This document shows, one piece after another, positions 20,698 through 54,282 of a stretch of 64,000 bases of DNA. Position 1 is the first letter of the stretch, and every line of letters starts with the position of its first letter. The DNA comes from Desulfobacteraceae bacterium (GTDB lineage Bacteria; Desulfobacterota; Desulfobacteria; Desulfobacterales; ETH-SRB1): NCBI GenBank assembly GCA_028571455.1, contig JAPVVG010000103.1, forward strand, positions 4,847 to 68,846. The letters are read 5' to 3'. Position numbers and translations under genes: made by a program. A model generated the notes under the pieces. That model was not told the DNA's origin, did no database searches, and was given only the letters and a program-made list of their open reading frames with translations.

Positions 20698-20701
20698 AGG
20701 T

Positions 20702-20822
20702 GTAGCCGTTCACGGCTTGAAACTTGAAATTAGAAAGTAGAAATTGGGAAGAACGGTACAAAAGCATGAAGGTCAAATTTCCAATTTCTATTTTCTAATT
20801 TCAGCGTTCCCTGAACGCTTAC
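20702..20822. mobile_element. MITE-like palindromic cassette, copy D2 (shortest; arms plus about 20-bp core)
   Basis: Same terminal arms as D1 and D3. The interior is reduced to ...GGTACAAAAGCATGAAGG. Confidence 0.7.
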
Positions 20823-24406: not shown

Positions 24407-24651
24407 CCCCGCCACGGCGGGGCTTGAAACTTGAAATTGGAAAGTAGAAATTGGGAAGACTTGTCTGCGTGCGGGCACGCACAGGCAGGGATGAAACGAG
24501 TTTACGAGTTGGATGTTTACAAGCTGGCAGAATACAAAGCAATAGTTGAAAAACTCGGCCCAAAATTAAATGCGTTCATCAACAGTACAAAAGCATGAAG
24601 GCCAAATTTCCAATTTCTATTTTCCAATTTCAACGTTCCGTGAACAGTTAC
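24403..24651. mobile_element. MITE-like palindromic cassette, copy D3 (contains an internally deleted four-helix-bundle gene remnant)
   Basis: The interior encodes ...RVYELDVYKLAEYKAIVEKLGPKLNAFINSTKA-stop, an N-terminal-like segment fused to a C-terminal-like segment. The arms match D1 and D2. Confidence 0.7.
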
Positions 24652-30354: not shown

Positions 30355-31198
30355 AAAGCAAATATCACAATATATAGCCCCCCTTTCCCCTATTCCGACC
30401 ACACTTTGCCGGACCGGAAACTTAAAAAAAAAGATCAAATGCATGATCTTTGATATTTACGGCACACTATTTATCAGCGCATCCGGCGACATCGGCATTG
30501 CAAAAAAAAAGTCCCTAAAAGCATACAAAGAATCATACGAACTGGAACAATTGCTGATTAAATTCAAAATAAGAAAAACCCGTAAGGCTGTTTTGAATGA
30601 TCTTTTCTCAGGTATTGAAAAGAAACATGATGAACTAAGAAAACAGGGAATTGACTTCCCGGAAGTCGAGATAGACCGTATATGGATGGATATTCTGAAA
30701 AGTAATGACCTGGTCACGGTCAGAGAGTTTGCGGTTAGGTTTGAAATGGTCGTAAATCCTGTGTATCCGATGCCGAATCTTAAAGAGATACTTTCCGCCT
30801 GCAAAAAATCAAAAGTATTGTTAGGCATTATCTCTAATGCTCAGTTCTATACACCGTATCTATTCGAGTGGCTCTTGGATTCAAACCTGGAACAGTTAGG
30901 ATTTCATCCTGATCTAATCCTCTTTTCATATAAATCAGGCCACGCAAAACCATCGCCATTTATGTTTCAATCCGCAGTTGAAAGGCTTAAAGGCTTAAAT
31001 GTTCCTGCTGACTCAGCCCTTTACATAGGCAATGATATGCTAAACGACATTTATCCCGCGAAAAATGCCGGATTTAACACAGCCCTTTTTGCAGGAGACG
31101 CAAGATCTTTAAGGCTCAGGAAAGATGTTGCGGAGTGTAAAAACTTATCTGCCGATCTTGTAATAACCGATCTGATTCAACTTCTTGACTATATCTAA
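30344..31198 (+). CDS. HAD-superfamily hydrolase
   Basis: 284 aa. Motif I-like IFDIYGTLF, plus ISNAQ and the C-terminal GNDMLNDI motif. Confidence 0.7.
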   Translation: MLNKKQISQYIAPLSPIPTTLCRTGNLKKKIKCMIFDIYGTLFISASGDIGIAKKKSLKAYKESYELEQLLIKFKIRKTRKAVLNDLFSGIEKKHDELRKQGIDFPEVEIDRIWMDILKSNDLVTVREFAVRFEMVVNPVYPMPNLKEILSACKKSKVLLGIISNAQFYTPYLFEWLLDSNLEQLGFHPDLILFSYKSGHAKPSPFMFQSAVERLKGLNVPADSALYIGNDMLNDIYPAKNAGFNTALFAGDARSLRLRKDVAECKNLSADLVITDLIQLLDYI

Positions 31199-32288: not shown

Positions 32289-32534
32289 GTTACTGATTTA
32301 CTAATGGATCCATAGTTCCCCCAATCCCACGGGCTATGATGTGATGCAACGCACCAGGCGCATCTATTCTCGACTTTCTTGGCATGATAAACGCTTAGCA
32401 CATCAATTATCATTTGCAAACTGTAAAACTAAAGGGCATCCCCAAAGAATTTCTATAACATTTTATCTGACATGGGTCAATAGTAGACTTGACCCCATTT
32501 CTACAGTAGACTTGACCCCATTTCACAGCTAAAT

Positions 32535-39264
<6,730 letters not shown>

Positions 39265-39493: not shown

Positions 39494-39784
39494 CTAAACA
39501 ATCAACGGCCCCTCCTGGTCAACTGACTTTTTAGCTCCAACATGCTCTACACGACGTTTCCAATTTGATCCTAAAAAATAAAACCTGAGGCTGTCTTCCT
39601 TCGGGTCAATCTCATCAATCAACCTCTGGCGAAGAACCGTCCACTGTGCAGGGTCAACGATACATTCAAAAACAGAATATTGAACCCGCTGCCCATAATC
39701 CTGACACGTCTTTGCCACCCTGCGCAGACGGCGCTGACCTCCATCCTTACTGGTGGCAACATCATAGCTGACAAGTACAAACAT
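39494..39784 (-). CDS. cas2: CRISPR-associated endoribonuclease Cas2
   Basis: 96 aa: MFVLVSYDV...YSVFEC. It is the last gene before the leader. Confidence 0.95.
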   Translation of the reverse strand: MFVLVSYDVATSKDGGQRRLRRVAKTCQDYGQRVQYSVFECIVDPAQWTVLRQRLIDEIDPKEDSLRFYFLGSNWKRRVEHVGAKKSVDQEGPLIV

Positions 39785-39793
39785 ACCACTCTC

Positions 39794-40825
39794 CTACTTC
39801 CAGATAAAAGGTGGATAACCATCCAGGTCTCCGCGCAAGTAACGAGCCATCAACAAGGCCTGCATATGAAACAACAAGCCGATTGTAACCTTTTCTTCAA
39901 TAAACGGATGCATTATCTCATCTTGTTTTCTTCTCTGATAGGCAACCAAAACAGTCTTTCTTGTCTCGTCATCCATCAATACAGCGCCTGATTCTGACTT
40001 TTTAAATCCTTTTTTCTGCACCTGTGAAAGATTTATCAGCGAAAGTGTTAAACGATCTGCAATAAAAGGACGAAATTCTTCCATCAGGTCGAGTGCAAGT
40101 CCGGGCCTGCCCGGACGGTCTCTGTGCAAAAAACCAACCGCTGGGTCCAATCCCACAGATTCAAGGGCAGAACGAACATCGTGCATTACAAGTGTGTATA
40201 AAAACGACAGAAGGCAATTTACGTTGTCCAATGGTGGCCGTCGATTTCGATCCTGGAAAAAGAAGTCTTTTTTTTGAGAGGTAATCAGGTGATCAAATAC
40301 TTTAAAATAGACATGCGCTGCATCACCTTCAATGCCTCGCATGGAATCCAAAGGTACATCTTCCTGTAAACGCTTCAGAGAATAGCTAATCTGCTTTGAT
40401 ACTTGGCTGACTTTATCTGCATCAAGCTTATCGGAGTGGTCTCTTAATGCCCTTTGCAGTACAGTGCGGCAGTTGGCAAGTTTGCCGGTAAGCACAGATC
40501 TTGCCATTTGAGCAGAAAAAGTCATGTCATCTGCCCTGCGGTATTGTTCCCGCCGCAGCAGGACATTTCCGGAAACAGGGCCCTGCACCCTTGCAAGAAA
40601 GCGTCCATACTCAGATAAAAAGCTGATAGACACATCGCGCTCGGCGCAAAAGCCCATCAAAAACGGGCTGCAACCTACATTGCCAAAACAGACAATCCCT
40701 CCTAATGTATGGACGGGAACACGCAAGCGGGTTTGTTTTTCCACCCTTACGATAACCGATTCGCCTTCTTTTGCAAGATAGGCTCCCTGTGTAGTTACAA
40801 AAAGGGTATTAAGATGTCTTTTCAT
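39794..40825 (-). CDS. cas1: CRISPR-associated endonuclease Cas1 (type I-C)
   Basis: 343 aa with the conserved Cas1 core. ATGA overlap with cas4. Confidence 0.95.
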   Translation of the reverse strand: MKRHLNTLFVTTQGAYLAKEGESVIVRVEKQTRLRVPVHTLGGIVCFGNVGCSPFLMGFCAERDVSISFLSEYGRFLARVQGPVSGNVLLRREQYRRADDMTFSAQMARSVLTGKLANCRTVLQRALRDHSDKLDADKVSQVSKQISYSLKRLQEDVPLDSMRGIEGDAAHVYFKVFDHLITSQKKDFFFQDRNRRPPLDNVNCLLSFLYTLVMHDVRSALESVGLDPAVGFLHRDRPGRPGLALDLMEEFRPFIADRLTLSLINLSQVQKKGFKKSESGAVLMDDETRKTVLVAYQRRKQDEIMHPFIEEKVTIGLLFHMQALLMARYLRGDLDGYPPFIWK

Positions 40826-41472
40826 GATTCTCGAATCGCTCCCGACAAGTAGCGTTTTACTGAACGTTTTCTTTCAATAGTTTTCGGCAGGCATATCTTC
40901 GCCAGTGAACAACTGTCACACTTTGGCGTATAGACTGGTTTTGGAGTCAGGCCGGATGCAATCAGTTCGTGGAGACGCATTGCCGTGTCTTCAGTCTGCT
41001 GTCTCAATGCGCCATCAAAGATAACATCTGTTCTCCGGCGCTTCTTCCCATAAAAAAGCGCACCGCACGGAACCTCAACATTTAGCATTTCTTCCAGACA
41101 GAGCGCCTGAGCGCAAAGCTGTACCTTATCGCAATTATTCTTCTTTGGTTTGCCGCGTTTATATTCCACGGGAAACGGTATCCACACCAACGATCCTGCT
41201 TTCTGCAAAGCCGGCTTTCGATGAAACTCAACAACGTCCGCCTTGCCGATTAGCCCCAGCCGAAATGAACGAAGCCACATGCTGTACTCAATGCGAACTT
41301 TGCCTCTGGATTGCCGATCTGCCTCATGAACCCGCTCGTGCATAATTTTGCCTTCGGCAGTAAAAAGGTTTTCCGCCCACGCCTGCTCAATATGTATTAG
41401 AGCGCACTGCCGCTCGCAAAAAATCAGATGCTGCAAGGCAGAAAGTGGAATGAGGTCGTCTTCTGAGTACAT
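40822..41472 (-). CDS. cas4: CRISPR-associated exonuclease Cas4 (RecB-like nuclease with 4-Cys cluster)
   Basis: 216 aa with an N-terminal Cys (FCERQCAL), C-terminal CDSCSLAKIC and a nuclease core (IGKADVVEF). Confidence 0.9.
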   Translation of the reverse strand: MYSEDDLIPLSALQHLIFCERQCALIHIEQAWAENLFTAEGKIMHERVHEADRQSRGKVRIEYSMWLRSFRLGLIGKADVVEFHRKPALQKAGSLVWIPFPVEYKRGKPKKNNCDKVQLCAQALCLEEMLNVEVPCGALFYGKKRRRTDVIFDGALRQQTEDTAMRLHELIASGLTPKPVYTPKCDSCSLAKICLPKTIERKRSVKRYLSGAIRES

Positions 41473-41499: not shown

Positions 41500-42141
41500 T
41501 CAGCCTTCCTCTGAAATAAGGTTCACAATAAGCCGAATCATCAATTCCTTCTGCCCCGGTTCACTCGCTGCCGTCAGAAGGGCAAGCGCCACGAGCGCCT
41601 TGTTGCTGAAGCTTTTTTGATCCAACAAGTCATTCTTTTTGAGAAACAACAGGAAGAGAAAAGAGCCGATCCTCTTGTTACCATCCGTGAAAGGATGATC
41701 CTTGATCACGAAATAGAGGAGATGGGCCGCCAGTCTGCGCTGATTAAGCGAATAACCACGCACGAGATGGTCTTTTAGAACGGTGGTAGCCCAAATGCGA
41801 AACTGAGTGCCGCGTTTAGCATTCACCCGATAACCTACCGCTATAATGACATCTAAATTATAATAATTCGTTTGGTAAGTTTTACCGTCACCAGCAGTAT
41901 GTGCAAATTTTGCACATACTGCCTTTTTATCTAATTCTTCACTCCGAAAAATATTGTTAATATGCTTGGTTACAACACTTCTCTCCGTTTCAAAAAGAGA
42001 GGCTATCTGTTTCTGACTGAGCCATACGGTTTCATCCTGAAGATGAACATCCAGCGCTGCCTGCCCGTCCTCAGACTGATACAATACGATTTCGCCGAGA
42101 TCGGAATTAATGCTTTCGATCTTTCCTGCCTTTCGAGTCAT
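41500..42141 (-). CDS. Chimeric RhuM-N-terminal / Fic-Doc-core protein inserted in the cas operon
   Basis: 213 aa. Residues 1 to about 125 parallel the RhuM protein at 50772-51800 (LSQKQIASLFETERSVVTKHINNIF vs LTQKKMAELFEKGRTTITEHLKNIF; AVGYRVNAKRGTQFRIWAT vs AVGFRVNSHRAIEFRKWAG). The C-terminus carries the Doc-type motif HPFTDGNKRIGSF. Confidence 0.8.
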   Translation of the reverse strand: MTRKAGKIESINSDLGEIVLYQSEDGQAALDVHLQDETVWLSQKQIASLFETERSVVTKHINNIFRSEELDKKAVCAKFAHTAGDGKTYQTNYYNLDVIIAVGYRVNAKRGTQFRIWATTVLKDHLVRGYSLNQRRLAAHLLYFVIKDHPFTDGNKRIGSFLFLLFLKKNDLLDQKSFSNKALVALALLTAASEPGQKELMIRLIVNLISEEG

Positions 42142-42317: not shown

Positions 42318-43166
42318 TCAGAAGCCATCAACGATCTCTGGCTTTAGGTCATCAAAGGAATTGAGCTTTTCGGAATCCAAAGAACCGTCCGGATTTACAG
42401 AAAGTCTCCTGTGAACTTTTGCCGATGAATATTGCCCATGTGGACAATTATGCTGCCACCAAACCATCTTAAGAACTTCCATACTTCCTTCCGGTCGAGC
42501 CGAGGATGCGTCATTTTCAAAAAGCTTTGGCAGTATATTCTTAATAGCCAAGGCGTCTTCATCGCCGAAGCCGGTTTTTGTTGCAAGTTGAGGGTTCATG
42601 CTGCCATAAAACACGTAAACCCCTTCATCTACACGATGCTTCATGCCCATCGTATCGGAACCTTTTTTCGTGCCGTCACCTTCTCCGCTGACACTCTTGG
42701 TGATCTGGGTGCTTGTAATATCCACGGGAAATAAAGAAAAGGCCGTATGAATCGAAACCGGACCTCTTACGCCGATTGACACGCCGGAACCTTTTTTTTC
42801 TCCGGCATACGCAAAAACCTGTCCGAATGCCCGGATATCAAACCATTTTTTGCAGGCTAATTCAGCATTTTCTTTAGAGGACTTTTTTGAATCTATAACC
42901 GTTTCAGCTCGTTCACGGAGATTTTTGCAATCATCAAGTTTGTTGTCATCAGATTGAACGAAAATTTGATATTTATACTCATCATTTTCTTTGACTTCCA
43001 TTAAACGATTTCTGATTTTTCGTTTGATGCAAACGTCTGAAACTTCTCCGATCCTGTTGTAACTTGTGCGGGGCCGGTTTCCGTTCAAAGGATCTCCATT
43101 AGGGTTGGCATTTTTAACTTTAAACACAACGGCGAAATCAATTTTATTCGTTAGGCTCATTATCAT
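42318..43166 (-). CDS. cas7: Type I-C Cascade backbone subunit Cas7c (Csd2)
   Basis: 282 aa: VKNANPNGDPLNGNRPR..., typical of Csd2. It lies between cas8c and cas4. Confidence 0.9.
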   Translation of the reverse strand: MIMSLTNKIDFAVVFKVKNANPNGDPLNGNRPRTSYNRIGEVSDVCIKRKIRNRLMEVKENDEYKYQIFVQSDDNKLDDCKNLRERAETVIDSKKSSKENAELACKKWFDIRAFGQVFAYAGEKKGSGVSIGVRGPVSIHTAFSLFPVDITSTQITKSVSGEGDGTKKGSDTMGMKHRVDEGVYVFYGSMNPQLATKTGFGDEDALAIKNILPKLFENDASSARPEGSMEVLKMVWWQHNCPHGQYSSAKVHRRLSVNPDGSLDSEKLNSFDDLKPEIVDGF

Positions 43167-45504
43167 TCTCCTCTTTGTTAGTAGTGTTTTCCTGAGTTGA
43201 TTTGAAAAGTTCTACTCGTTGGCAATGGAATCCTAAAAGAAATTCTCCAGACAACGGATCATCGGATGCATAACCGGAAACATCGGTGAATAAACCGTGA
43301 ATATCATCGAGTTCTTTATCGTATTTATTGGTTCTGTTAAGCTTGGCCTTATAGGGTGTTAAGGCCAGCTCAATGGTTTTCCATGTGCTGCATGGTCGTT
43401 CCGCAAACCGTTGCATCAACTTTGTTGCATTGGTCTGCCTGCTTTCATTTGAAAGTTTGAGCGCATACCCCTCAAGGCAGTCTGCTACCGCAAGCAGTCG
43501 CCCATAGAGATAGTCTCTGGTTTTTCGTTCTTGATCAAGTCCCATGGTGAAATCCTCCTTTTCTTTGAAATAATATCTATAAAGTCCGCAAGCGATTCCC
43601 AAAGTTTTCTGCCATGCCCACTCAGGCAAACTTTGTCTTTGGGTCGCTTTTTTTATACATGAATCAACAATATCCCAAGGTAGTGGCGTACCATCAATAA
43701 TGCATGGAATTAATCGCTCAACTGTTGTTTTCTGTAAGCTATCATCGACCTTAATTAGATCTCCGTCCTTTGTTCCATAAGCTGCCTGGGCAATATCTTT
43801 GGGAGCTGGCGCTCCGTAAAACATTTTGTCTTTTGAAAATCGTTGCAGCCATGCGCATCCCTGATGCCACGATTCTAAACGGTCTATAAAATCAGAACCG
43901 GTCAATTCACGGTAATAAGTAACTGCCATGCGACCTGGGGTAGCGGAGTCGATTCCCATTACAACAATTTGATCTGTTGCCTTCAGTTTAACGGAATAAC
44001 CCGAAAGATACTTTGAGAGGCGAATTCCGAATTCCTGAGCAGTGAATCCGGAAAAGTTTTTCTCTGTTTTTTTTATATCGGTTTCAATCGAAATGTCACT
44101 CAATAAGTCGTCACTGTCTGCCAGCGGATCAGGAACATTTACCGCCGAAACTGCCCACGCGACAAAAGCCAATTTAGGCTCGTTTTTTACGTAAAACACA
44201 TTTTTTCCTTGTCGAGCTATTAACCAGCGCAACGCATTATGGGCTTTTTGGGCCACTCTAACGTCAACTCCGCAAACTTGACATTCATCCGTAAAACGAC
44301 CGCGGTAGGTAAAGCCGGAAGTGTCATTTGATGAAATAAGTTTTGCACCATCGTTATCAGATCTAATCATACGCGGATATTGTTCAGTCTGATATTTCGG
44401 CTCTTCAGTAGTTGATTCTCCAGAAACATAGCAAAAAATATGTTTGCTTCGTGTGCTTTGATAATAATCAATCCAGCTTTGCCATACGGTTTTATCGTAT
44501 TGGATCTCTGAGGATGGTTCTCCTGGGATTTCAACACTCCAGCGGATAAATGTATCCGTTTGTCTTTGACCCTGCCCAAGCACTTTAAAAATATCCGGCT
44601 TATCATCCCGTTTGCCTTTCCATGAGCTGAGCAATTTTCCATTTTCATCCACATGAAGCACTTTCTCAAATACTAAATCTGAAATCAAAGTCCCTTTGGA
44701 TATGTAATGATAGACGGCTTTTACTTTTTGGTTTGCATATTCAGATTTTGCCCATCCCTCTAAAACATCGAGATATCCTATGTATCCTGTCTCAATTGAA
44801 GGATATACGCATTCCAAAATATTAGCTTTCAGATAGTTTTTTTCCTTATCAGAAAGCTGGTCAGCATCACCAATTCGCCTTCTTAATTCTACATATTGTT
44901 CTTTCTGTTCTCTCTTATTGTTTGTTAATTTATTATTATTTTTTCGAATCAGAGGGCTGTCGGAATCAATCAAATCGTAATAAATTTTATCTGTTTTACG
45001 CTCTCTAATATCTGTATCTATCTTTGATGAAAAAACCTGCTTTTTTGCCTTAAAGCTTTCAATGATATCAACAAATTGCTTATTCTCTATTAAAATTCTT
45101 CTCAGGCAACCTTTCTTGTCTTTATCACTATTGCCCAACAGTTCGCCAAACAGCTTTTTATTTCCTTTGAACTTGACGAACAATGAACCAAAGTAATGTT
45201 CTTTAGCGCCACCATATTTTTCATAATCAGCAGCAACATATTGCAATTGATCTGCTAAAGGATGAGGGGCGCAGCCTCTGGTTCTTCCAGCAGAATTTTC
45301 CGTTGCAGGTAATATTGTCTTCGCGGTATCTTCTGGTATAATTGATGCCCGTTTAAATGAGCCATCTCCATCCAGTATTATTTCAACATGTGCCCGTTTT
45401 TTTGTTGTATGGAAAAGAGGCAAAAGCGGTGTTTTATCCTTCTTATCGCCTATATTATCAGTGTTATTTTCGTAGGTTTGATAAAGTTTTTCAATCCAGC
45501 TCAT
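43144..45504 (-). CDS. cas8c: Type I-C large subunit Cas8c (Csd1), unusually long (786 aa)
   Basis: ATG at 45504 is preceded by GAGGAGG. MSWIEKLYQTYENN is a Csd1-like N-terminus. Its position between cas5c and cas7c also fits. Confidence 0.85.
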   Translation of the reverse strand: MSWIEKLYQTYENNTDNIGDKKDKTPLLPLFHTTKKRAHVEIILDGDGSFKRASIIPEDTAKTILPATENSAGRTRGCAPHPLADQLQYVAADYEKYGGAKEHYFGSLFVKFKGNKKLFGELLGNSDKDKKGCLRRILIENKQFVDIIESFKAKKQVFSSKIDTDIRERKTDKIYYDLIDSDSPLIRKNNNKLTNNKREQKEQYVELRRRIGDADQLSDKEKNYLKANILECVYPSIETGYIGYLDVLEGWAKSEYANQKVKAVYHYISKGTLISDLVFEKVLHVDENGKLLSSWKGKRDDKPDIFKVLGQGQRQTDTFIRWSVEIPGEPSSEIQYDKTVWQSWIDYYQSTRSKHIFCYVSGESTTEEPKYQTEQYPRMIRSDNDGAKLISSNDTSGFTYRGRFTDECQVCGVDVRVAQKAHNALRWLIARQGKNVFYVKNEPKLAFVAWAVSAVNVPDPLADSDDLLSDISIETDIKKTEKNFSGFTAQEFGIRLSKYLSGYSVKLKATDQIVVMGIDSATPGRMAVTYYRELTGSDFIDRLESWHQGCAWLQRFSKDKMFYGAPAPKDIAQAAYGTKDGDLIKVDDSLQKTTVERLIPCIIDGTPLPWDIVDSCIKKATQRQSLPEWAWQKTLGIACGLYRYYFKEKEDFTMGLDQERKTRDYLYGRLLAVADCLEGYALKLSNESRQTNATKLMQRFAERPCSTWKTIELALTPYKAKLNRTNKYDKELDDIHGLFTDVSGYASDDPLSGEFLLGFHCQRVELFKSTQENTTNKEENDNEPNE

Positions 45505-46228
45505 TTTGCAGTGCCTCCTCATTAAGCCCGTTGGATTGGGGCGGATTGGGAATCATTTCACGCACAAATTTTCTCATGGTGCATTTCTCAGGGCGGATAA
45601 ACTTGATTATTCCTCTCTGCATGACCGGTTTCCAAAACCGACTGTGAAGCCGGTTTTCTCCGTTTGAATCAGATTTGCCATTCTCATCCGTTTTCCCTGT
45701 TTCATCTGGATAATCAAACCCATGAAACATGATGCCGTAATCCAAACGCTCAAGGTCGTCATAAACACCGGTTTCTTCCCCAAAACGGCACGGTTCCACA
45801 TAACCTTGGCATTCTCGTGCACCGAGAAAAATGTCCTGTCTCCCGCCTTTATCAATCATTCGTTTTGCAATCTGAAAATGTTTCCCGTCAATACGATCCG
45901 CTGCCATATCTTCACGAAACAAATTCCACTCAAAATGTGCCTGTACCTGATATTCGACATCCGCAAGATACGTGTACATCGCCAATGTATTCCCACCTCC
46001 ATAATTTAGAGGCTTAATACTTTTGGCTTCCGTTTTTATCGGTTTCATTATCCGAACTTCATCAATTATCCAGATTAAAGTAGGCTTCCAGTAGACGGAT
46101 TTCAAAATCCCTTTTAATGCCTCATATGTAGGAATATGGTAGGAACACTTCTCGCCGCCCATTCTGGTCACGGGATCGGTGAACAGAGCATGCCGCCCCG
46201 TTACTTTGAATTCAACACTGTTTTTCAC
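45491..46228 (-). CDS. cas5: Type I-C pre-crRNA endoribonuclease Cas5c (Cas5d)
   Basis: 245 aa: FKVTGRHALFTDPVTRMGGEKCSYHIPTYEALKGILKSVYWKP. No cas6 is present in the locus. Confidence 0.9.
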   Translation of the reverse strand: MKNSVEFKVTGRHALFTDPVTRMGGEKCSYHIPTYEALKGILKSVYWKPTLIWIIDEVRIMKPIKTEAKSIKPLNYGGGNTLAMYTYLADVEYQVQAHFEWNLFREDMAADRIDGKHFQIAKRMIDKGGRQDIFLGARECQGYVEPCRFGEETGVYDDLERLDYGIMFHGFDYPDETGKTDENGKSDSNGENRLHSRFWKPVMQRGIIKFIRPEKCTMRKFVREMIPNPPQSNGLNEEALQNELD

Positions 46229-46238
46229 TTTAACCTCC

Positions 46239-48698
46239 TTATGCGCTTAAAAATTTCATTTCTGAGACCGGTTCCAGGCTTACACCAAAATCTTTACTGT
46301 AATATTGATCATCCAAATACCATATTCCGCTTTCTTCATACGTCTGAAACAGGGCATTTTCTTCACGCAGTTTTTTAATCATATAGGGGAAAATATTTAC
46401 AGAATACTGCTGCGCAGTTTTCAATAGCTTCGATTCTTCTTTCAGGTGTAATTTTGCCGAAAGCTTTGCAATTATTGACTTTGCCTCTTCATTGTACGGA
46501 ACAATAATTGCCTCTGTTGGTGCATCAATTATACGGAAATGTTTGCCCGCTGTTTTGAATGCCTGCCTCAAATACAGGGAGGGACTTCCGCTTTTTCTTT
46601 TGTATTCTTCAACAGATTGCCGGTTTTCTGAAAGCAGAGACAGCAAATTGTCGTCACTGCCCAATCTCTCTCTGGATACCTGATAACTCATTTCATGCGC
46701 TCGTTCGTAAAAATAGTACTTATAAAATTGTTTCATGGCTTTATGGCCGATTCTATCTTTATCGAAGTCGGCAGGATTCTTTTTATACTCATCAAGGATT
46801 CGTAATGTCACATCTTGAGCTGTCCTGATTTCCGGTAATTTATCAAGGTTTTCATTTTGCATATTGACGATTTGCACTATTCCCTTGACTTCTTGTCTTC
46901 CGTTGCGATTACAACGCCCTGCTGCCTGGGCTATAGAATCAAGACCGGCCAAACAACGAATGACAGCTCCGAAGTCTACGTCCACCCCGGCCTCAATCAA
47001 CTGGGTGCTGATGCAGATGACTGGTTTAGAATTCGATGGGCCAAGACAATCAATCACCTGGTTTAAAATAATTTTCCGGTGCTTGGGACACATGTTTGTG
47101 CTGAGGTGAAATACATTTTTCGACAGACCGTGACAGGATTCGTATAAGCGTTTTGCATTTGCCTTTGTATTTGTAACGACAAGCACGCTTCCCTTATCTT
47201 GCAAAAGCGCTTTCACACGCTCTGTCAAATCTTCTTCCGTCCATCCCCCGCTTTTTTGACAATCTTGCACCTTCACCCGATTTAGTGCATCAAAAAGCGG
47301 AGGATAATCCACGATTTCCATAGCATCAGAATACGGCACAGTGCCTTTAGACGGTTCAACTTCATGCAAAAGCGGCTGGGTCGCAGTGCAAAAAATAACA
47401 GTAGAAAAGCAAAGATCTGTTAAAAAATTAATTGCGTTGTTAAACATGTGAACGGTTTTGATTGGCAGAGTCTGAATTTCATCAAAAATGATGACAGATT
47501 TTGCAAGTTGATGCATACGACGCACACTGCGTGTTCCGCCTCCGAAAAGCGTTTCCAGTAATTGTACGGATGTAGTGAATACGATCGGCGCATCCCAGTT
47601 TTCCGACAAAATCCGGTTTCGGTATGTGTCTTTTTCAGGCACAAGATTTGAGTGGTGCTCCAAAACAATTTCTTTGGATATGCCATCAAATATTTTAGCC
47701 ACTTCTGATGCGTTCTGATCAATTATCGAGGTATACGGAATGACATAAATAATACGGTCAAGTTCATGCTCTTTTGCATGGTGGAGGGCAAAACGAAGAC
47801 TGGAGAATGTTTTTCCGCCTCCTGTCGGAACCGTCAAATAATAAAGTCCCTGCTTGTCATTTGCCCGTTGCCTGCAGGACGATGAAATCTCGCATCTTTT
47901 TTGATCGACTTTATTTTTAATTTCAAAGGATATTTGTTCAAAACAATCTATCAGTTTTTGCCAATCCGGGTAATTCCCGAGATAACGCAATTTTGCATCT
48001 TCCGGGTTTTCGAAATTGGCGGTACTCAACCTGTCCGCATCCACTAAACTACTGAAAAGGAAGCGGACCAACAGTCCTTTTGAAAATTGCCGTACAGGGT
48101 CACAGTAAAACCCATGGATCTTGCTTATGAAATTCCTTAATTGATCATTTTTCCCCTCTGTTTTAATCAGTTCAGTGATGCGGTCTGAAATTGAATAATC
48201 AATTTTTTCTTGCGCCTCGCAATAATGCGTCGTAGTGAAATCTTTATTCAGTCGCACTGAAAATTTATCTTCACCGGCAATATCGAATACATCGATCAAG
48301 CCCGAATGGTGAGAGAGTACACATAAAGAGACTATTTCCACCGCCAGTTTGTTGATTTTGACTTCATCTTTTAATGCATCCCAAATCCATTGCGCACCGG
48401 CAGTGGAATGATCGATTTTGCCTCTTAATCTCTCTGCATCTACATAGTTTTTATCCCCCGGAAAAAGCAATCCAACGGCGGATTTTATGTAGCATTGATA
48501 TTCAAAACTGTATTTTCCCAAGTCATGAAGTAGCCCTGACAGCTCACCGATCAGATCCAACCCGATTTTGCCCGCAAATTTTTTAGCAAACAGAGAAGTT
48601 TCAACTGAGTGTGTTTTCACGCTATGTCTGGCACAATCGACTTTGCGATAATGTGCCAAATAGGATGTAGTCTTCATTTTAATATCTTCTTTTTTCAA
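46239..48698 (-). CDS. cas3: Cas3 helicase-nuclease (HD domain plus SF2 helicase)
   Basis: 819 aa. HD motifs (LLHDLGK), Walker A PTGGGKT and DEIQ box. An alternative start is ATG 48677. Confidence 0.95.
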   Translation of the reverse strand: MKKEDIKMKTTSYLAHYRKVDCARHSVKTHSVETSLFAKKFAGKIGLDLIGELSGLLHDLGKYSFEYQCYIKSAVGLLFPGDKNYVDAERLRGKIDHSTAGAQWIWDALKDEVKINKLAVEIVSLCVLSHHSGLIDVFDIAGEDKFSVRLNKDFTTTHYCEAQEKIDYSISDRITELIKTEGKNDQLRNFISKIHGFYCDPVRQFSKGLLVRFLFSSLVDADRLSTANFENPEDAKLRYLGNYPDWQKLIDCFEQISFEIKNKVDQKRCEISSSCRQRANDKQGLYYLTVPTGGGKTFSSLRFALHHAKEHELDRIIYVIPYTSIIDQNASEVAKIFDGISKEIVLEHHSNLVPEKDTYRNRILSENWDAPIVFTTSVQLLETLFGGGTRSVRRMHQLAKSVIIFDEIQTLPIKTVHMFNNAINFLTDLCFSTVIFCTATQPLLHEVEPSKGTVPYSDAMEIVDYPPLFDALNRVKVQDCQKSGGWTEEDLTERVKALLQDKGSVLVVTNTKANAKRLYESCHGLSKNVFHLSTNMCPKHRKIILNQVIDCLGPSNSKPVICISTQLIEAGVDVDFGAVIRCLAGLDSIAQAAGRCNRNGRQEVKGIVQIVNMQNENLDKLPEIRTAQDVTLRILDEYKKNPADFDKDRIGHKAMKQFYKYYFYERAHEMSYQVSRERLGSDDNLLSLLSENRQSVEEYKRKSGSPSLYLRQAFKTAGKHFRIIDAPTEAIIVPYNEEAKSIIAKLSAKLHLKEESKLLKTAQQYSVNIFPYMIKKLREENALFQTYEESGIWYLDDQYYSKDFGVSLEPVSEMKFLSA

Positions 48699-48760: not shown

Positions 48761-49675
48761 TTATTTAAAAATGCGCCAAAAAGGGTCATTATGCCAATTC
48801 TTGAAAAAGCCCATTTTTTCAAGTTGTATATCGGGATTATTGTCAAGAAGATCCAACAAACGGTATTGCCAGCGTGACCCATCTGCTACGACAGACAGAA
48901 ACACATTCAAAACAGCGGCTTGAGCATAAAAACCGGTATTATTTTGAAGATGTCTTTTAAATTTATTTGCGACTTTCGGCTTAACTGTAAATTTTCTGTT
49001 CCAGATACGTGAATGGTGTGCGCAGAGGTTTCGAAGATAAGTAAATGACTGCAGCCAGGATGACATTATATTGTAATGCAGATAATATTGATCGCTAATT
49101 TGTTTGCGATCTTTTCGTGATCTTAGATTGCTGAAAATATTTGACCATGCTCCTACAGAAAGAGCTTCCGCCACTATCCAGACAGGCGGCAGATATGGTT
49201 TGTTATAATTTTTAAAATAAGTACCGCAGGATTTATTTTGTTTTTTTCTATTATTAAAGCCTGTTTCATATTCGATGGTTTTTATTAAGTCTTTATAATT
49301 AAAGCTGGATTTAAAGAGCATTGGTTTGAGATACCAATGGGGTCCGTATTTTTCACACATTGTGGAGGAAATAGTTGTTCGTATGGCAACTTCGATTCTT
49401 TCTACAGCATCCATAACCAATAATCTGAGCTTTCTATCAAAAATATAGAGCGATATTATAGAATCAAATGTAGTGCCCTTTTTAAAAATGTGCTCAGAAG
49501 TATTTTGAAGCTGGAAAGTTCGAAAATAACCGGAAAGGCGGTGGTAGCCTATAAAGCGAAGATAATGGAGAACTCGTTTTGGGTTTTTAACAAGCAGGCC
49601 TTGCTTAACAAGAAGCTCAAGCTGTTGGTCGATATTTAAAACCGGTTTTTCGTAACGCTGATAGATTTCAGACAT
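48761..49675 (-). CDS. Abi_2 (AbiD/AbiF-like) abortive-infection family protein with HEPN-type Rx4H motif
   Basis: From ATG 49675: MSEIYQRYEKPVLNIDQQLELL.... Contains LRNLCAHHSRIWN (R-x4-H). The track ORF's TTG start at 49702 lacks support. Confidence 0.75.
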   Translation of the reverse strand: MSEIYQRYEKPVLNIDQQLELLVKQGLLVKNPKRVLHYLRFIGYHRLSGYFRTFQLQNTSEHIFKKGTTFDSIISLYIFDRKLRLLVMDAVERIEVAIRTTISSTMCEKYGPHWYLKPMLFKSSFNYKDLIKTIEYETGFNNRKKQNKSCGTYFKNYNKPYLPPVWIVAEALSVGAWSNIFSNLRSRKDRKQISDQYYLHYNIMSSWLQSFTYLRNLCAHHSRIWNRKFTVKPKVANKFKRHLQNNTGFYAQAAVLNVFLSVVADGSRWQYRLLDLLDNNPDIQLEKMGFFKNWHNDPFWRIFK

Positions 49676-49734
49676 AAAAAACCCGCCGAGGTGCGCATCC
49701 AATGGAGAGGCGTGGCGGGGATTGTTATAAACAA

Positions 49735-49763
49735 TATAACATTTACCCCGCCTAATTTGTCAA
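49735..49763 (-). promoter_or_regulatory. Possible sigma70-type promoter for abi (and cas3)
   Basis: Minus strand has TTGACA at 49763-49758, then TTATAT (18-nt spacing) or TATATT (19-nt spacing). The spacing is suboptimal. Confidence 0.25.
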
Positions 49764-49796
49764 GTAATAATTTAACTAAATTTTATTGCATAATCT

Positions 49797-49829
49797 AATT
49801 TAATCCACGCCCTCATAAAAGAGGGCGAC
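49797..49829 (-). ncRNA. Solitary degenerate CRISPR-repeat-like hairpin (pseudo-repeat)
   Basis: Minus strand reads GTCGCCCTCTTTTATGAGGGCGTGGATTAAATT, against array repeat GTCGCTCCCCATGCGGGGGCGTGGATTGAAAC. They share 5' GTCGC and GCGTGGATT. The stem is kept by compensatory changes (CGCCCTC/GAGGGCG). Confidence 0.5.
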
Positions 49830-49918
49830 ATTTCCTTTTAATACTTCATTCCCGTCTTTTTGTTTTACATTACGCACCCTTCGCTGTTCTGTTTTGTGCT
49901 TTTTATCTCTTTCGCGAT

Positions 49919-50446
49919 TCATAATTCTGCCTTAATTTCCTCGATGCGATCCTTGATCTGCTTGATTTGTCGGTGCTTATGCATCTGATTTGCCGATTTT
50001 CCAAGCAAATACCGACTCACTGTTTCCAGTTTATGATTGGGCAAATGTGGATACTGCTTTCTGCTCATTTTTAGTGTGCATAAAGACCGGTTGTTCAGAC
50101 TCATGCTGAGTAAAGCAAATTCATTCCTGAGAAATCCGATATCAAAACTTGCATTGTGGGCTATCAGGATACTTCCGGCAATGAATTTGTAAAACTCCGG
50201 CAGCGCCTCATCCGGCTTTGGTTCGCCATATAGCATTTCGTTGGTTATGCCGTACACCCGCTGAACTTGCCGTGGGATTATTTTGTCAACATCGATAAGA
50301 CTGCTGAATTCATCAACAATGCTCTGATTCTCAATAGCAACAGCGCCGATCTCTATTACCCTGTCCCCGTTTTTGGGCGAAAGACCGGTTGTTTCCACAT
50401 CCAGCGCTACATACCGATTTGTTGAGTTTATACGGTTGTTCGACAT
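49919..50446 (-). CDS. DEDDh-type 3'-5' exonuclease (DnaQ/epsilon-like), C-terminus atypical
   Basis: 175 aa. Exo I is ALDVETTGL and Exo II is LIAHNASFDIGFL. The expected Exo III Hx4D is not recognisable; the sequence ends ...NQMHKHRQIKQIKDRIEEIKAEL. Confidence 0.7.
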   Translation of the reverse strand: MSNNRINSTNRYVALDVETTGLSPKNGDRVIEIGAVAIENQSIVDEFSSLIDVDKIIPRQVQRVYGITNEMLYGEPKPDEALPEFYKFIAGSILIAHNASFDIGFLRNEFALLSMSLNNRSLCTLKMSRKQYPHLPNHKLETVSRYLLGKSANQMHKHRQIKQIKDRIEEIKAEL

Positions 50447-50643: not shown

Positions 50644-50775
50644 TTATCTGAAATTACCCATGTCCACATAATCCCGTAACGCATTGGTAAATTCCTTGCC
50701 TTGTCCTTCGAAACAACGGACAACGGCCATAGTGGCATCGATCTGGTAGGGTTGCTGTTTGAATATCAGCTTCAT
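50644..50775 (-). pseudogene. 43-codon stub of a type III restriction (Res) / SF2 helicase gene, ATGA-coupled to rhuM
   Basis: Own translation: MKLIFKQQPYQIDATMAVVRCFEGQGKEFTNALRDYVDMGNFR-stop. It resembles the N-termini of type III Res enzymes. Its ATG overlaps the rhuM TGA. Confidence 0.45.
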
Positions 50776-51800
50776 TTATCACGATCCTCATTACCCAATA
50801 GTTTTTGGACTTCCCGATCAAAGTCTGAAACATAGTTCTTATCTTGAATTATCCTGTATTTATCGAATTCCGCTTCTGCTTTCAATTTTACCTCGAGCAT
50901 ATTTACTTTGCCCAAATTGGCAAGAATCGGATAATCTGAAAGCTCCAGAAACTGTGTAAGAAATTGATCCCAGTCTGCCATGTTCATCACTTTTCTGTTG
51001 TGCGCCCGATTTTCTGCCATATCAAGATATGCGGTGACAATTCGCTCCAATTGTCGGAGATGTTCTTCATTGAGATAATTTTTGGCAATAGATACATCGC
51101 TTTTAAGAATTTTACCATCCGGAGCGTTCTTCCATGTTTTCAGCCCCATGTACGCCTTTTGAGCATCTACTTCATTGTAAATAATTTCTGCTGCAGTTTT
51201 ACCGGTTATGGCCCAATGCAATTTATTCTGTACTGTTGCGTAAAAGTGTTTAGTTATATCGGCCTGGCTGTCATAATCTGCTGAAAGAGCGTAAATGTCG
51301 GTGATTTTCTGATATATTCTCCGCTCACTCAAGCGAATTTCCCGAATCCGCTCCAGCATCTCATCAAAATAGTCCTGCCCAAAGTGTTTGATTTGTTTTA
51401 ACCGTTCATCATCCATGGCAAAGCCTTTAATGATGTACTCATGCAAAATCTCGCCTGCCCATTTTCGAAATTCGATTGCCCTATGCGAATTGACCCTAAA
51501 CCCTACTGCGGTTATGGCTTTTAAGTTATAGAACTTTGAAACATAGGATTTACTATCTTCCGCAGTATGTCGGAAATCCCGACATACTGAATTTTCCAAT
51601 AATTCTCCTTCGGAAAAAATATTTTTTAAATGCTCTGTAATGGTAGTTCGCCCTTTTTCAAAGAGTTCCGCCATTTTTTTTTGAGTCAGCCAAAGGGTTT
51701 CTTCATAAAAAAAGACATCTATATTTACCTTGCCACTTTTTGTTTTAAAGACGACAAAATTAGAAAAGGGTTGTAATTCGGAAGAGTTTTTGTTTTTCAT
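50772..51800 (-). CDS. rhuM: RhuM-family protein
   Basis: 342 aa with the N-terminal signature LWLTQKKMAELFEKGRTTITEHLKNIF...AVGFRVNSHRAIEFRKWA. The length is typical of the full-length family. Confidence 0.75.
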   Translation of the reverse strand: MKNKNSSELQPFSNFVVFKTKSGKVNIDVFFYEETLWLTQKKMAELFEKGRTTITEHLKNIFSEGELLENSVCRDFRHTAEDSKSYVSKFYNLKAITAVGFRVNSHRAIEFRKWAGEILHEYIIKGFAMDDERLKQIKHFGQDYFDEMLERIREIRLSERRIYQKITDIYALSADYDSQADITKHFYATVQNKLHWAITGKTAAEIIYNEVDAQKAYMGLKTWKNAPDGKILKSDVSIAKNYLNEEHLRQLERIVTAYLDMAENRAHNRKVMNMADWDQFLTQFLELSDYPILANLGKVNMLEVKLKAEAEFDKYRIIQDKNYVSDFDREVQKLLGNEDRDK

Positions 51801-52234: not shown

Positions 52235-53107
52235 CTACAGTTTAAATTCATCCCTGATTTCAGTAACATCCTTTAAAATGCGCTCACTTTCTTTCCAATC
52301 TATTTGAAAATTGCCAACCAGATGCAAAAAATAAAGATGCAGGCTTTTTTCTTTTCGATTAAAGATAAACCGGTTGCGGCTGTTATAAGTGAAAAAATAT
52401 GTAGGCACGGGTTTTTCGTTGTTTAAAAGGGCAAACAGGTGGCCATAGAAGCCGTGGTTATATCGCTGGCCGCTGGAACCGGAACCGCCCTTTATATAGT
52501 AAAAATGTCCATCTTGGTCTTTGCAAAAATAGTATTGCTGCCAGGGATTTCTGCTGTCCCAGTGATTAAAAGGCCGCGGCATTTCGTACCGGCGATGATA
52601 GCGGTATTCTACCCGCTCTTTAAAGGAATTTTCTTTTTCCCAGTATTTTTCCCACTCGTCTTCATATATGATTTGATATTCTTCCTTTACCCGCTCAATC
52701 ATTTCTGGGAAAATTTCCTGATCCAAATCCTTAATTATTTTGTCCCTGAGGTCGCCCTCTTTCATGTTTTTATATTCCGGTTCGTTTTTTAAGAACTCCA
52801 TCCGTTCATCGATAAGCTTTATATGTTCTCTGTTTCTGTCCCACCAATATTTTCTAACTTCCTCTTCCACCCGAGAACATAAAATAACTTTCTCTTTTTC
52901 TGTATAACGATCATTATCCCACAAATCATTTTCAAGCCTTTCCATGTAAACATATACCGAAAAAAACCGCATGGTTTTGTCAATTTTCTCATACACCTCT
53001 TTTAGAGACGGACCTGTCATGAAGGCCGATAGTTCAAAGTATCTCAATCTGTCAGTCTCTGCCTCAGCGATCAGAGCTCGAATTATATCTGGATAATTTT
53101 CAAACAT
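52235..53107 (-). CDS. Hypothetical protein, no recognisable domain (Trp/Tyr/Glu/Lys-rich)
   Basis: 290-aa ORF that starts 47 bp downstream of the fic stop on the same strand. No motif recognised. Confidence 0.6.
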   Translation of the reverse strand: MFENYPDIIRALIAEAETDRLRYFELSAFMTGPSLKEVYEKIDKTMRFFSVYVYMERLENDLWDNDRYTEKEKVILCSRVEEEVRKYWWDRNREHIKLIDERMEFLKNEPEYKNMKEGDLRDKIIKDLDQEIFPEMIERVKEEYQIIYEDEWEKYWEKENSFKERVEYRYHRRYEMPRPFNHWDSRNPWQQYYFCKDQDGHFYYIKGGSGSSGQRYNHGFYGHLFALLNNEKPVPTYFFTYNSRNRFIFNRKEKSLHLYFLHLVGNFQIDWKESERILKDVTEIRDEFKL

Positions 53108-53154: not shown

Positions 53155-54282
53155 TCATTTTTCCGCGTAATCTGCCCATATTATGTCATAGCTGACACTG
53201 CGACCCCTGCCCGGGTTCTGCCTGAATATCTGCTTTGCAACCAGGTCGGATATCTCGCGATAAGCGGTTGCCCGGCTAACCTTTAGCATGCCCACATATT
53301 TACGGGTGGTCAGACCGCCTTCGAAACCGCCTGGGCCGGCATCCAGCAAACGATTGATAACCTTTTTCTGTCGTTTATTCAGTGTTGTCTGCCCATGCTG
53401 CTGCCAGAACCGTGCCTTTGCCAGAACATTTGAAATCAATGTCTCTGAATGCTCAAGCGCTCGTTCAAAACATTCCAGAAACCATAGCAGCCAATCGGTT
53501 ATATTGCCGTCTCCTTTCTGGCATCGCTCCAGCACACGGTAATATTCATCCCTTTCAGCCATGATACGTGTTGAAAGGCTGTAAAACCTGGACGGCTGGT
53601 TCTCATCCTGTGCCAACGCCATATCGGTAAGGGCTCTGGCGATCCGTCCATTACCATCTTCAAACGGATGAATAGTGACAAACCGAAAATGGGCTATAGC
53701 GGCCCGCAGCAGTCCCTCGATATTTTTCGATCCCTTTGTCCACCATTGGATGAAATCTCTGATTTCCATATCCACCTGGTCTGATGGCGGCGCCTCAAAG
53801 TGGACTTTTTCTTTCCCAACAGGGCCGGATACCACCTGCATAAGTTCCGGGCCTCGCCATTGGCCGGTACGAATTTTCCGCAAGCCTGAATACCCGGTCG
53901 GGAAGAGGGCGGCCTGCCAGCCCATCAGTCTTTCGGGCGATAGCGGCTCGCTGTAATTTGCAGTGGCATCCAGCAGCACATCCACCAGGCCATCGACAAT
54001 CCGTTCCGTAGCGGGCAAACCGGCTGTCGGCAGCCCAAGTCGCCGTGCCACTGAAGACCTGACCGAATCCCTGTGCAGGGCCTGCCCTTCAATCGCAGCG
54101 GTTTTAACGGCTTCTTCAATCAATATTTCAACTCTGGCTTCTTTACTGAATTTCAAACCCAGAGCATTCACCTTGCTCAGCAACCTGCCCTGGCGCAGTC
54201 GAGCCCGGCCAAGCGGTTGAATCAGTGCATCACTTTCCCAGCTAAACTCTGTCCAGTTTGTATTTTGCCATACATAACGCAT
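53155..54282 (-). CDS. fic: Fic family protein (Fic_N/DUF4172-type N-terminus, canonical Fic motif, C-terminal wHTH)
   Basis: 375 aa: MRYVWQNTNWTEFSWES.... Contains HPFEDGNGRIARAL. Confidence 0.9.
   Translation of the reverse strand: MRYVWQNTNWTEFSWESDALIQPLGRARLRQGRLLSKVNALGLKFSKEARVEILIEEAVKTAAIEGQALHRDSVRSSVARRLGLPTAGLPATERIVDGLVDVLLDATANYSEPLSPERLMGWQAALFPTGYSGLRKIRTGQWRGPELMQVVSGPVGKEKVHFEAPPSDQVDMEIRDFIQWWTKGSKNIEGLLRAAIAHFRFVTIHPFEDGNGRIARALTDMALAQDENQPSRFYSLSTRIMAERDEYYRVLERCQKGDGNITDWLLWFLECFERALEHSETLISNVLAKARFWQQHGQTTLNKRQKKVINRLLDAGPGGFEGGLTTRKYVGMLKVSRATAYREISDLVAKQIFRQNPGRGRSVSYDIIWADYAEK

Follow-up and report, generated by a model that had tools for sequence, protein, structure and literature searches.

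What is a lone hairpin that resembles a CRISPR repeat doing upstream of cas3, about 10.5 kb away from the array whose repeat it resembles? The hairpin reads GTCGCCCTCTTTTATGAGGGCGTGGATTAAATT on the minus strand (49829-49797) of a 64-kb stretch of DNA, referred to here as the window, and it shares the strand of the cas genes, the first of which, cas3, follows about 1.1 kb downstream, as a sequence-only reading of the window had noted. That reading proposed a candidate crRNA-like regulatory RNA, in which the hairpin would donate a 5' handle to a guide lying downstream.

The hairpin and its surroundings

Inspection of the window shows that its minus strand encodes a full type I-C locus, with NCBIfam matches for Cas5c, Cas8c/Csd1, Cas7/Csd2 and Cas1c, where cas3 is followed in order by cas5c, cas8c, cas7c, a RhuM/Fic gene, cas4, cas1, cas2 and the array (Table 1). 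Directly upstream of cas3 is abiF, and this abiF-cas3 linkage is found again in at least 12 related loci. The abiF gene is preceded by an abiF RNA motif, which scores above the gathering threshold, stands upstream of an Abi_2 gene, and is separate from the hairpin itself. The motif is followed by U6 and then by the abiF start codon, and its helix is 100% paired across 9 loci. AbiF proteins are described as HEPN-type toxins, neutralised by a cis-encoded RNA with this motif in a type III toxin-antitoxin-like arrangement (PMC12373285; PMC12737573). A putative promoter for AbiFr and abiF can be discerned by eye between the motif and the hairpin; its -35 element is unchanged in 8 of 9 loci, and a spacer of 18-19 nt accounts for the failure of a consensus scan to call it. 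On the far side of the hairpin are the exonuclease gene and, further upstream, a RhuM gene, a Fic/DUF4172 gene, an HTH-IrrE gene and an ORF of 290 aa (52235-53107) with no Pfam match, and the surroundings as a whole look like a defence island. Between the exonuclease stop codon and the hairpin, the consensus scan called no promoter, and a terminator scan of the interval from the exonuclease gene to the hairpin likewise called none.

Table 1 Positions of the hairpin, its parts and neighbouring features in the 64-kb window
Feature	Position	Strand	Basis or remark
Hairpin under study, assigned by sequence to PsiR2 (3' pseudo-repeat in a mini-CRISPR)	49797-49829	-	sequence, fold, 11-mer in common with the repeat
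PsiR2, 5' GT	49829-49828	-	
PsiR2, stem 5' arm CGCCCTC	49827-49821	-	
PsiR2, loop TTTTAT	49820-49815	-	
PsiR2, stem 3' arm GAGGGCG	49814-49808	-	
PsiR2, degenerate handle-like tail TGGATTAAATT	49807-49797	-	
PsiS remnant, last 20 nt, ATGAAGTATTAAAAGGAAAT	49830-49849	-	alignment to intact PsiS
DUF1016/YhcG-type gene, first 24 codons	49850-49922	-	full gene in L001, L027, L042
DnaQ/RNase T-like exonuclease gene, upstream of the hairpin	49919-50446		
AT-rich stretch (the "pseudo-spacer" of the sequence-only reading)	49764-49796	-	upstream region of the putative abiF promoter
Putative AbiFr/abiF promoter	49733-49763	-	TTGACA 49763-49758; TGnTATATT or TTATAT around 49741-49733; by eye
abiF RNA motif (Rfam RF03085), antitoxin-type RNA (AbiFr)	49681-49719	-	39.9 bits against gathering 37, E = 2.8e-5
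abiF (Abi_2 family), directly upstream of cas3	48761-49675	-	Pfam Abi_2, E = 4.9e-51
cas3, first gene of the cas operon	46239-48698	-	NCBIfam match; ORF
cas5c	45491-46228	-	
cas8c	43144-45522	-	
cas7c	42318-43166	-	
RhuM/Fic-like gene	41500-42141	-	
cas4	40822-41472	-	
cas1	39794-40825	-	
cas2	39494-39784	-	
CRISPR array, at least 102 copies of the repeat GTCGCTCCCCATGCGGGGGCGTGGATTGAAAC	32535-39262	-	

Comparison of the hairpin with the array repeat reveals an exact 11-mer in common, GGGCGTGGATT, which occurs in every array repeat and at 49802-49812 and has no other exact copy in the 64-kb window. The chance expectation for this 11-mer in the window is 1.08 matches with at most one mismatch, which becomes about 0.03 exact matches when divided by 34. 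Hairpin and repeat also share GTCGC at the correct spacing from the 11-mer, and a by-eye count with one gap gives 22 identical positions out of 33. The resemblance on which the sequence-only reading was built, namely GTCGC together with a segment of the repeat, is borne out by these matches, and the lone CRISPR-repeat-like hairpin is real and goes beyond chance expectation.

The perfectly paired CGCCCTC/GAGGGCG stem that had been proposed is confirmed by the predicted fold, in which 7 bp enclose a 6-nt loop with an energy of -14.3 kcal/mol and a z of -4.5. Relative to the stem of the repeat, one pair is altered on both sides (C-G to U-A) and another on a single side (U.G to C-G), such that the earlier description of the stem changes as compensatory is thin as a claim. 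The handle-like tail agrees with the repeat at 8 of 11 positions. An Rfam search assigns no family to the hairpin, its sole significant match being the neighbouring abiF RNA. A repeat-derived sequence that adjoins cas genes on the cas strand is one mark of the mini-CRISPRs of the CreR/crlRNA type, also called solitary repeat units (SRUs), and the window contains such a sequence.

Intact units in related loci

Scanned with Cas3 against species genomes, the window falls among uncultured Desulfobacterales-like bacteria. An AbiF-based metagenome scan, combined with an exact look-up of the AbiF protein, returned many abiF-cas3 loci on metagenomic contigs of such bacteria. Ten of these related loci, whose arrays have the same repeat family, carry one common unit directly upstream of the abiF leader, arranged in the order promoter, 5' pseudo-repeat (PsiR1), guide (PsiS), 3' pseudo-repeat (PsiR2), abiF promoter, AbiFr RNA, abiF and cas3. 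The promoter of the unit (TTGACT-16-TATTAT) is sigma-70-like and scores 10/12. PsiR1 consists of an extended hairpin and a perfect 11-nt I-C 5' handle, TGGATTGAAAC, which is found in 10 loci and which the predicted folds place directly 3' of the PsiR1 stem, a stem that occurs as either CACTC/GAGTG or CACCC/GGGTG. PsiS spans 27-37 nt, as in the example AATAAAAATGAAGTATTGAAAGGAAAT, and the intact form to which the window can be aligned reads AATAAAAATGAAGTATT(G/A)AAAGGAAAT. Two effector variants adjoin the unit, both of type I-C and about 30% identical to each other.

The 3' hairpin distinguishes two types of locus. For type A (L027/L036, L029, L033, L037 and L047), it is identical or nearly identical to the window hairpin, while for type B (L028, L030, L031 and L032) it is unrelated in sequence and not repeat-like. 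Because the same sequence forms the 3' hairpin of the type A loci, the window hairpin is, judged from these alignments, the PsiR2 of a degenerate mini-CRISPR, that is to say of a solitary repeat unit whose RNA would be a CreR or crlRNA. L047 has an AbiF protein identical to that of the window and does not differ from it in DNA sequence between PsiR2 and abiF, yet its element is complete. This arrangement reverses the polarity of the sequence-only reading, since the hairpin occupies the position of the 3' pseudo-repeat and not that of a 5' repeat donating a handle, and since the guide of the intact loci lies upstream of it and not downstream. The abiF-type leaders upstream of cas3 in L001 and L034 are without any PsiR2, and neither PsiR2 nor the PsiR1-PsiS junction was matched in the viral contigs scanned. 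Solitary matches to GCGTGGATT in distant I-C loci (L015, L017, L022, L023 and L024) were also considered and are not regulators; they fall by chance in coding sequence, in an array with a single spacer or in a chimeric assembly.

In 9 of the 9 related loci scanned, the site that PsiS matches best within the locus, apart from itself, is flanked by TTC and lies 70-90 nt upstream, and in all 10 loci the PsiS target sits inside the unit's own promoter. The TTC PAM overlaps the -35 element, and the protospacer covers the promoter spacer and the -10 element. Pairing between guide and target reaches 18/18 in L047, 16/17 in L029 (mismatch at position 6) and 15/16 in L032 (mismatch at position 12). Mismatches fall solely at positions 6 and 12 in L033, at positions 6, 12 and 15 in L027, at position 8 in L030 and L031, and at positions 7 and 8 in L028; for L037, 10 contiguous nucleotides are matched before a 5-nt deletion in the target breaks the match. 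Full seed pairing is found in most of the 10 loci, the exceptions being L028, L030 and L031 with their seed mismatches at positions 7-8. Mismatches are located mainly at positions 6 and 12, which are left unpaired in type I R-loops (10.1101/2024.12.27.630466), and pairing spans positions 1-17 in the best loci.

The guide itself differs between the types, with AATAAAAATGAAGTATT in type A versus AGTAAAAATAGTATATT in type B, and the targets vary in parallel. This guide-target co-variation between subtypes is the strongest comparative sign of function. Further features typical of SRUs, namely a PAM-flanked partial match to a promoter, a promoter belonging to the unit (TTGACT-16-TATTAT) and a 5' pseudo-repeat with the subtype handle before the guide, are present in the relatives and absent from the window. 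As for the conservation in related genomes that the sequence-only reading had proposed to check, PsiR2 is kept with abiF-cas3 in the type A loci, but the register of the stretch downstream of it is not.

The window copy and the readings of its hairpin

Alignment of the window to the intact loci indicates that only the 3' portion of the unit remains. The last 20 nt of PsiS precede PsiR2, and upstream of them is the 5' end of a DUF1016/YhcG-type gene whose ATG overlaps the exonuclease stop (ATGA) and which in L001, L027 and L042 opens a complete DUF1016_N + YhcG_C gene. The junction GACGGGA/ATGAAG (GACGGGA followed by ATGAAGTATT...) joins DUF1016 codon 24 to nucleotide 8 of PsiS, resulting in a fusion ORF of 40 codons (49922-49800) that runs from the DUF1016 5' end across the PsiS remnant and through PsiR2. 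The PAM-proximal PsiS seed (AATAAAA...) is deleted, and the window shows homology to the intact loci only from about 49884 on. An identical junction in the independent assembly L045 makes an assembly error at 49850/49849 unlikely. A different DUF1016-PsiS junction is found in L046, representing a second, independent deletion. The loss of the element is recent, because L047, with the same AbiF and identical DNA from PsiR2 on, is intact.

No handle resembling TGGATTGAAAC is found outside the array in the 64-kb window, where DUF1016 coding sequence occupies its place, and the 64 kb hold no intact element, handle or PsiS target elsewhere. A possible target beyond the window would be immaterial, given that the copy has neither handle nor seed. 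The comparison indicates that an illegitimate deletion took what followed codon 24 of DUF1016, the target-bearing promoter, PsiR1 together with the handle, and the seed of PsiS, and that the window copy is most likely an inactive relic, for which annotation as a functional guide RNA is not warranted. The term crRNA-like regulatory RNA is therefore apt for the origin of the hairpin, which is the repeat-derived hairpin of a CreR/crlRNA-type element tied to a I-C cas operon, but not for the window copy, which is without promoter, PsiR1, handle, seed and target. Similarly, the earlier remark that no second repeat is visible is true of the window, but only because the deletion removed PsiR1.

The stretch GCGAAGGGTGCGTAATGTAAAAC...GACGGGA was considered as a degenerate PsiR1, with GCGAAGGGTGCGTAATGTAAAAC matching the 3' half of the repeat at 12 of 18 positions, and was rejected, as it is the in-frame 5' end of DUF1016/YhcG in L001, L027 and L042. 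The same stretch does have a 10-nt identity (GCGAAGGGTG) with the arm of the true PsiR1.

We consider it probable that the hairpin is the PsiR2 left over from a mini-CRISPR regulator that is intact in sister genomes and was disabled here by deletion. The anatomy of the unit, the guide-target matches with their PAM, the co-variation of guide and target and the deletion junctions are all visible in the aligned loci and carry this reading. Counting against it, the PsiR2 stem is identical in all type A loci, leaving no co-variation within the family, and PsiS ranges over 27-37 nt as compared with 33-36 nt for the array spacers.

An improbable alternative is that the retained hairpin is still a site for Cas5c, where cleavage would separate the exonuclease message from the abiF-cas3 RNA, or where the hairpin would titrate Cas5c. 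Cas5c is reported to recognize chiefly the stem base and the UGG just past the cut, and not the loop (PMC8524198), and both determinants are intact in the window hairpin. The absence of a called terminator after the exonuclease gene is also consistent with such a role, as is the observation that PsiR2 survives in both independent deletions (window/L045; L046), whose ends lie a short way upstream of it. A pair of events is too small a number to carry this argument, however, and PsiR2 is only 34 nt from the abiF -35 element, so that deletions sparing the abiF promoter would often spare PsiR2 too; the distance could by itself explain why both did. In addition, PsiR2 appears to be dispensable, being missing from the L001 and L034 leaders, and ribosomes on the 40-codon fusion ORF would melt the hairpin. 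Were Cas5c to cut here, the exonuclease message would be left with a stable 3' hairpin cap.

It is more doubtful still that the hairpin is an intrinsic terminator or insulator for the exonuclease gene ahead of the abiF promoter. Its GC-rich 7-bp stem and folding energy of -14.3 kcal/mol would suit a terminator, it begins about 90 nt past the exonuclease stop codon, and terminator hairpins of a like kind (CGCCCC/GGGGCG) are found nearby in relatives, for example L001 and L026. The genes run on the minus strand, and there the tail reads UGGAUUAAAUUAGA (TGGATTAAATTAGA) and contains no U-tract; the scan called the hairpin as a terminator on the plus strand only, where no gene needs ending. The hairpin is also older than its exonuclease neighbourhood, in that it follows PsiS and no coding gene in the intact loci, and a terminator would leave the identity of GT...GCGTGGATT to the CRISPR repeat unexplained.

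Very unlikely, in turn, is the model of the sequence-only reading, in which the hairpin acts as a 5' pseudo-repeat whose cleavage by Cas5c gives an AT-rich guide downstream the handle UGGAUUAAAUU, and Cascade is led to a partly matching promoter. The agreement of the tail with the repeat at 8 of 11 handle positions favours this model, as do its location on the cas strand and its proximity to a promoter-like TTGACA. The downstream stretch was described as a 35-nt pseudo-spacer abutting TTGACA, and it is indeed AT-rich and adjoins that hexamer (49763-49758), but it measures 33 nt and is not a guide: a search for TTC/TTA-flanked seed matches found no target for it in the window or in L027, L029, L033, L037 and L047, and no TTC-flanked partial target was found in the window or in these five related loci. 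Indels in L027, L029 and L037 (in L037 a loss of 5 nt) shift its register, L033 has an altered handle (TGGATC), and the type B relatives have no handle-like tail. In the intact loci, the true handle and the guide are both found upstream. Seed matches of the pseudo-spacer at 56283 (+) and 47496 (+) were rejected as being at chance level, with no PAM and both within genes. A scan of 49700-49925, in which each 34-mer of either strand was compared with the window for seed matches next to a PAM, gave none that is convincing; an 11-nt A-rich match at 51746 was rejected, being within the RhuM coding region and out of register.

Decay in place of an ordinary second CRISPR array is the least credible reading, for although repeat-derived sequence does adjoin the cas genes, no orthologous locus has an array at this position and all of them have a single unit in which two degenerate repeats, unlike each other, accompany a conserved self-promoter guide, a pattern that argues for selection for regulation and not for the decay of an immune array. 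The sequence-only reading had itself named a mere exonuclease terminator and an ordinary second array at orthologous loci as findings that would tell against a regulatory origin; the gene strand offers no U-tract for the former, and a single PsiR1-PsiS-PsiR2 unit stands in place of the latter.

Proposed mechanism and known systems

For the mini-CRISPR regulator of which the window hairpin would be the relic, Cas5c processing, Cascade binding, repression and the loss of function in the window are steps that we infer by analogy with characterised systems. In the intact loci, Cas5c would cut each of the two hairpins at its 3' base, freeing a crRNA-like guide, predicted to be about 60-70 nt in length with UGGAUUGAAAC at its 5' start. 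I-C Cascade loaded with this guide would bind the promoter by pairing over about 17 nt next to the PAM, which would be too short to license Cas3 cleavage. Such binding would repress the promoter of the element, along with any read-through into abiF-cas3, and the outcome would be a negative feedback loop that senses free Cascade. Promoter repression by partially pairing guides has been demonstrated for I-C crlRNAs (10.1101/2024.12.27.630466), and autorepression of cas promoters is described for CreR (10.1101/2023.03.10.532045). PsiR2 keeps the parts that Cas5c is reported to need, namely the base of the stem and the UGG that follows the cut, and its loop, the middle of its stem and its distal handle would be free to drift. 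The window remnant (20 nt of PsiS and PsiR2), if transcribed at all, would most likely form the end of the exonuclease transcript. Between PsiR2 and abiF there is a further putative promoter, that of abiF, and the targeted promoter may also drive abiF-cas3.

CRISPR-derived regulatory mini-arrays are already known, including experimentally characterised I-C examples in a preprint. The sequence-only reading knew of no crRNA-like regulator assigned to a I-C locus of this architecture, but for type I-C itself crlRNAs had already been reported (10.1101/2024.12.27.630466) and creA-like elements noted (10.1101/2023.03.10.532045). The crlRNAs of I-C SRUs start with a 5' handle of 11 nt and end in a 3' hairpin or in a 21-nt 3' handle derived from PsiR2, and they repress promoters via TTC/TTA-flanked partial matches in which positions 6 and 12 are tolerated (10.1101/2024.12.27.630466). 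The I-C SRU 'CRISIS' systems (Shu et al.) resemble the unit described here in subtype, in the 11-nt 5' handle and in the predicted Cas5c cut at the hairpin base. They are also alike in the TTC PAM, in PAM-proximal partial pairing, in the promoter target and in an adjoining defence or abortive-infection gene. The Gabija type of Shu et al. (PsiR2, roughly 21-nt 3' handle) corresponds to type A, and their Nezha type (non-repeat 3' hairpin) to type B. The 'CRISIS' SRUs follow the genes that they supervise, between cas3 and cas5c, and their target precedes those genes. In contrast, the element described here is upstream of abiF-cas3 and targets the promoter transcribing itself, and its partner is a type III toxin-antitoxin-like AbiF/AbiFr module, the window copy of the element being truncated. 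No report of AbiF/AbiFr as a I-C-supervised system was found in the literature searched.

CreR/CreA elements (Liu et al., 10.1101/2023.03.10.532045) are likewise degenerate PsiR1-PsiS-PsiR2 units near the cas operon, with a partial match to a promoter upstream of cas genes and a proposed autorepression that senses free effector. CreR has been demonstrated for I-B, I-E and V-A, whereas I-C was only noted from manual searches (10.1101/2023.03.10.532045), and the first genes downstream are the abiF toxin module and cas3 here as opposed to Cascade genes for CreR. CreTA/CrePA systems similarly combine a toxin gene adjoining cas genes with a crRNA-like RNA, an arrangement in which loss of Cascade could unleash the toxin. 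The present family differs from CreTA/CrePA in that AbiF has an RNA antitoxin of its own (RF03085) and in that the crlRNA target is the upstream promoter of the element and not the abiF promoter proper. Racr RNA anti-CRISPRs (phage SRUs) share the feature of a solitary repeat-like hairpin outside an array, but they are decoys encoded by mobile elements (PMC10651486), whereas the element described here belongs to the chromosome, shares the strand of the cas genes and was not found in the viral contigs scanned.

What sets this family apart is the placement upstream of abiF-cas3 with an own-promoter target and the association with AbiF and the abiF RNA. Shmakov et al. (NAR, 2023) reportedly present a wide catalogue of CRISPR-derived regulatory mini-arrays. 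This self-promoter abiF-cas3 family is without a description in the literature searched. The family widens the architectures of I-C crlRNAs and ties CRISPR-guided regulation to a type III-like module of AbiF and its RNA antitoxin. Where a lonely repeat is found near cas genes, setting it beside sister loci can bring out the full mini-CRISPR, its target, and whether the copy is live or dead. The intact, truncated (two independent deletions) and absent versions of the element in near-identical backgrounds offer ready comparisons of the cost and benefit of autoregulation.

A more far-reaching and rather speculative proposal, for which we hold only limited expectation, is that the crlRNA of this family represses its own promoter as it reads into AbiF/AbiFr and cas3, such that Cascade occupancy would set the levels of toxin and Cas3, and that the window and L046 would be natural, independent knock-outs. 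If so, the GGCGGGG arm of the read-through RNA can out-compete the helix of the abiF motif/terminator, and loss of Cascade, for example to anti-CRISPRs, would turn abiF on. The knock-outs may then be selected for freeing cas3 and abiF from repression; the array of the window holds at least 102 spacers.

Recombination around the abiF cassette

The mini-CRISPR/abiF locus, where the PsiR1-PsiS-PsiR2 regulatory unit lies upstream of the Abi_2-family gene abiF and cas3, is a recombination hot spot. Inspection of the related loci reveals a second deletion joining DUF1016 to the spacer-like PsiS in L046 (1-130), independent of that in the window. In L001 (8470-9800), DUF1016 and the abiF leader are retained, but the mini-CRISPR is lost, as is abiF itself. 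L034 carries abiF-cas3 with no mini-CRISPR.

Across L027, L028, L030-L032, L034, L036 and L038, compared with the window and L029, abiF is ~90% identical, and the mini-CRISPR is present in most of these loci (L034 being an exception, and the region upstream in L038 not being sampled). Two different type I-C effector modules adjoin this abiF, with Cas3, Cas5c and Cas7 only ~30% identical between modules, and cas4/cas1/cas2 and the repeat remain similar across loci with differing modules. This pattern points to modules being shuffled while the cassette of regulatory element and Abi gene stays conserved. In L032 (2889-6062), the abiF stop codon is absent and the frame runs on into cas3. The resulting 1057-aa ORF reflects either a genuine fusion of AbiF to Cas3 or an error in the sequence.

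PsiR1, the 5' pseudo-repeat, shares sequence with DUF1016. The 10-mer GCGAAGGGTG (window 49867-49876, - strand) occurs both in the 5' coding part of DUF1016 and in the 3' arm of PsiR1 in L029, L037 and L047, and the sequence that follows it is loosely alike in the two. This sharing may be coincidental or may be left over from an earlier duplication.

Competing helices in the abiF leader

Two mutually exclusive pairings are possible in the abiF leader (window 49681-49752, - strand), where an upstream helix competes with the abiF motif/terminator helix. In a comparison of nine loci, pairing is kept at 96.8% in the outer helix, where one pair co-varies (UA in five loci, GC in three), and at 100% in the abiF helix. 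The GGCGGGG arm of the upstream helix sits between the putative -35 and the putative -10, and would thus be present only in read-through RNA from upstream. Such competition would constitute an antiterminator-like logic.

Features of the window outside the mini-CRISPR
Feature	Position	Strand	Remark
abiF RNA motif/terminator helix	CCCGCC 49719-49714 + GGCGGG 49687-49682	-	then U6
Upstream competing helix	GGCGGGG 49752-49746 + CCCCGCC 49720-49714	-	
RhuM (N-terminal)-Fic/DOC (C-terminal) gene	41500-42141	-	inside I-C cas operon
Full-length RhuM gene	50772-51800		upstream of I-C locus
Fic/DUF4172 gene	53155-54282		upstream of I-C locus
Lone GCGGATTGAAAC	30963-30974	-	10/11 positions of 5' handle
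GC hairpin + TGAAACTTGAAATTRGAAAGTAGAAATTGGGA, three copies	~15060-15130, 20690-20760, 24395-24465	+	intergenic

Other genes and repeats

The RhuM-Fic/DOC gene is bordered by cas7c on one side and cas4 on the other, and is kept in the relatives L001, L004, L027, L029, L034 and L037.

The lone GCGGATTGAAAC lies 1.5 kb past the distal array end, and a tandem AGTAGACTTGACCCCATTTC x2 adjoins the last array repeat (window 32480-32535); an old terminal repeat may have been split off from the array by an insertion. Two canonical repeats in L037 (7429 and 7515) lie ~90 nt apart in opposite orientation, which could mean either that part of the array was inverted or that the contig was misassembled. The GC hairpin/TGAAACTTGAAATTRGAAAGTAGAAATTGGGA element, of which a partial, inverted copy occurs near 20790, looks REP- or MITE-like.
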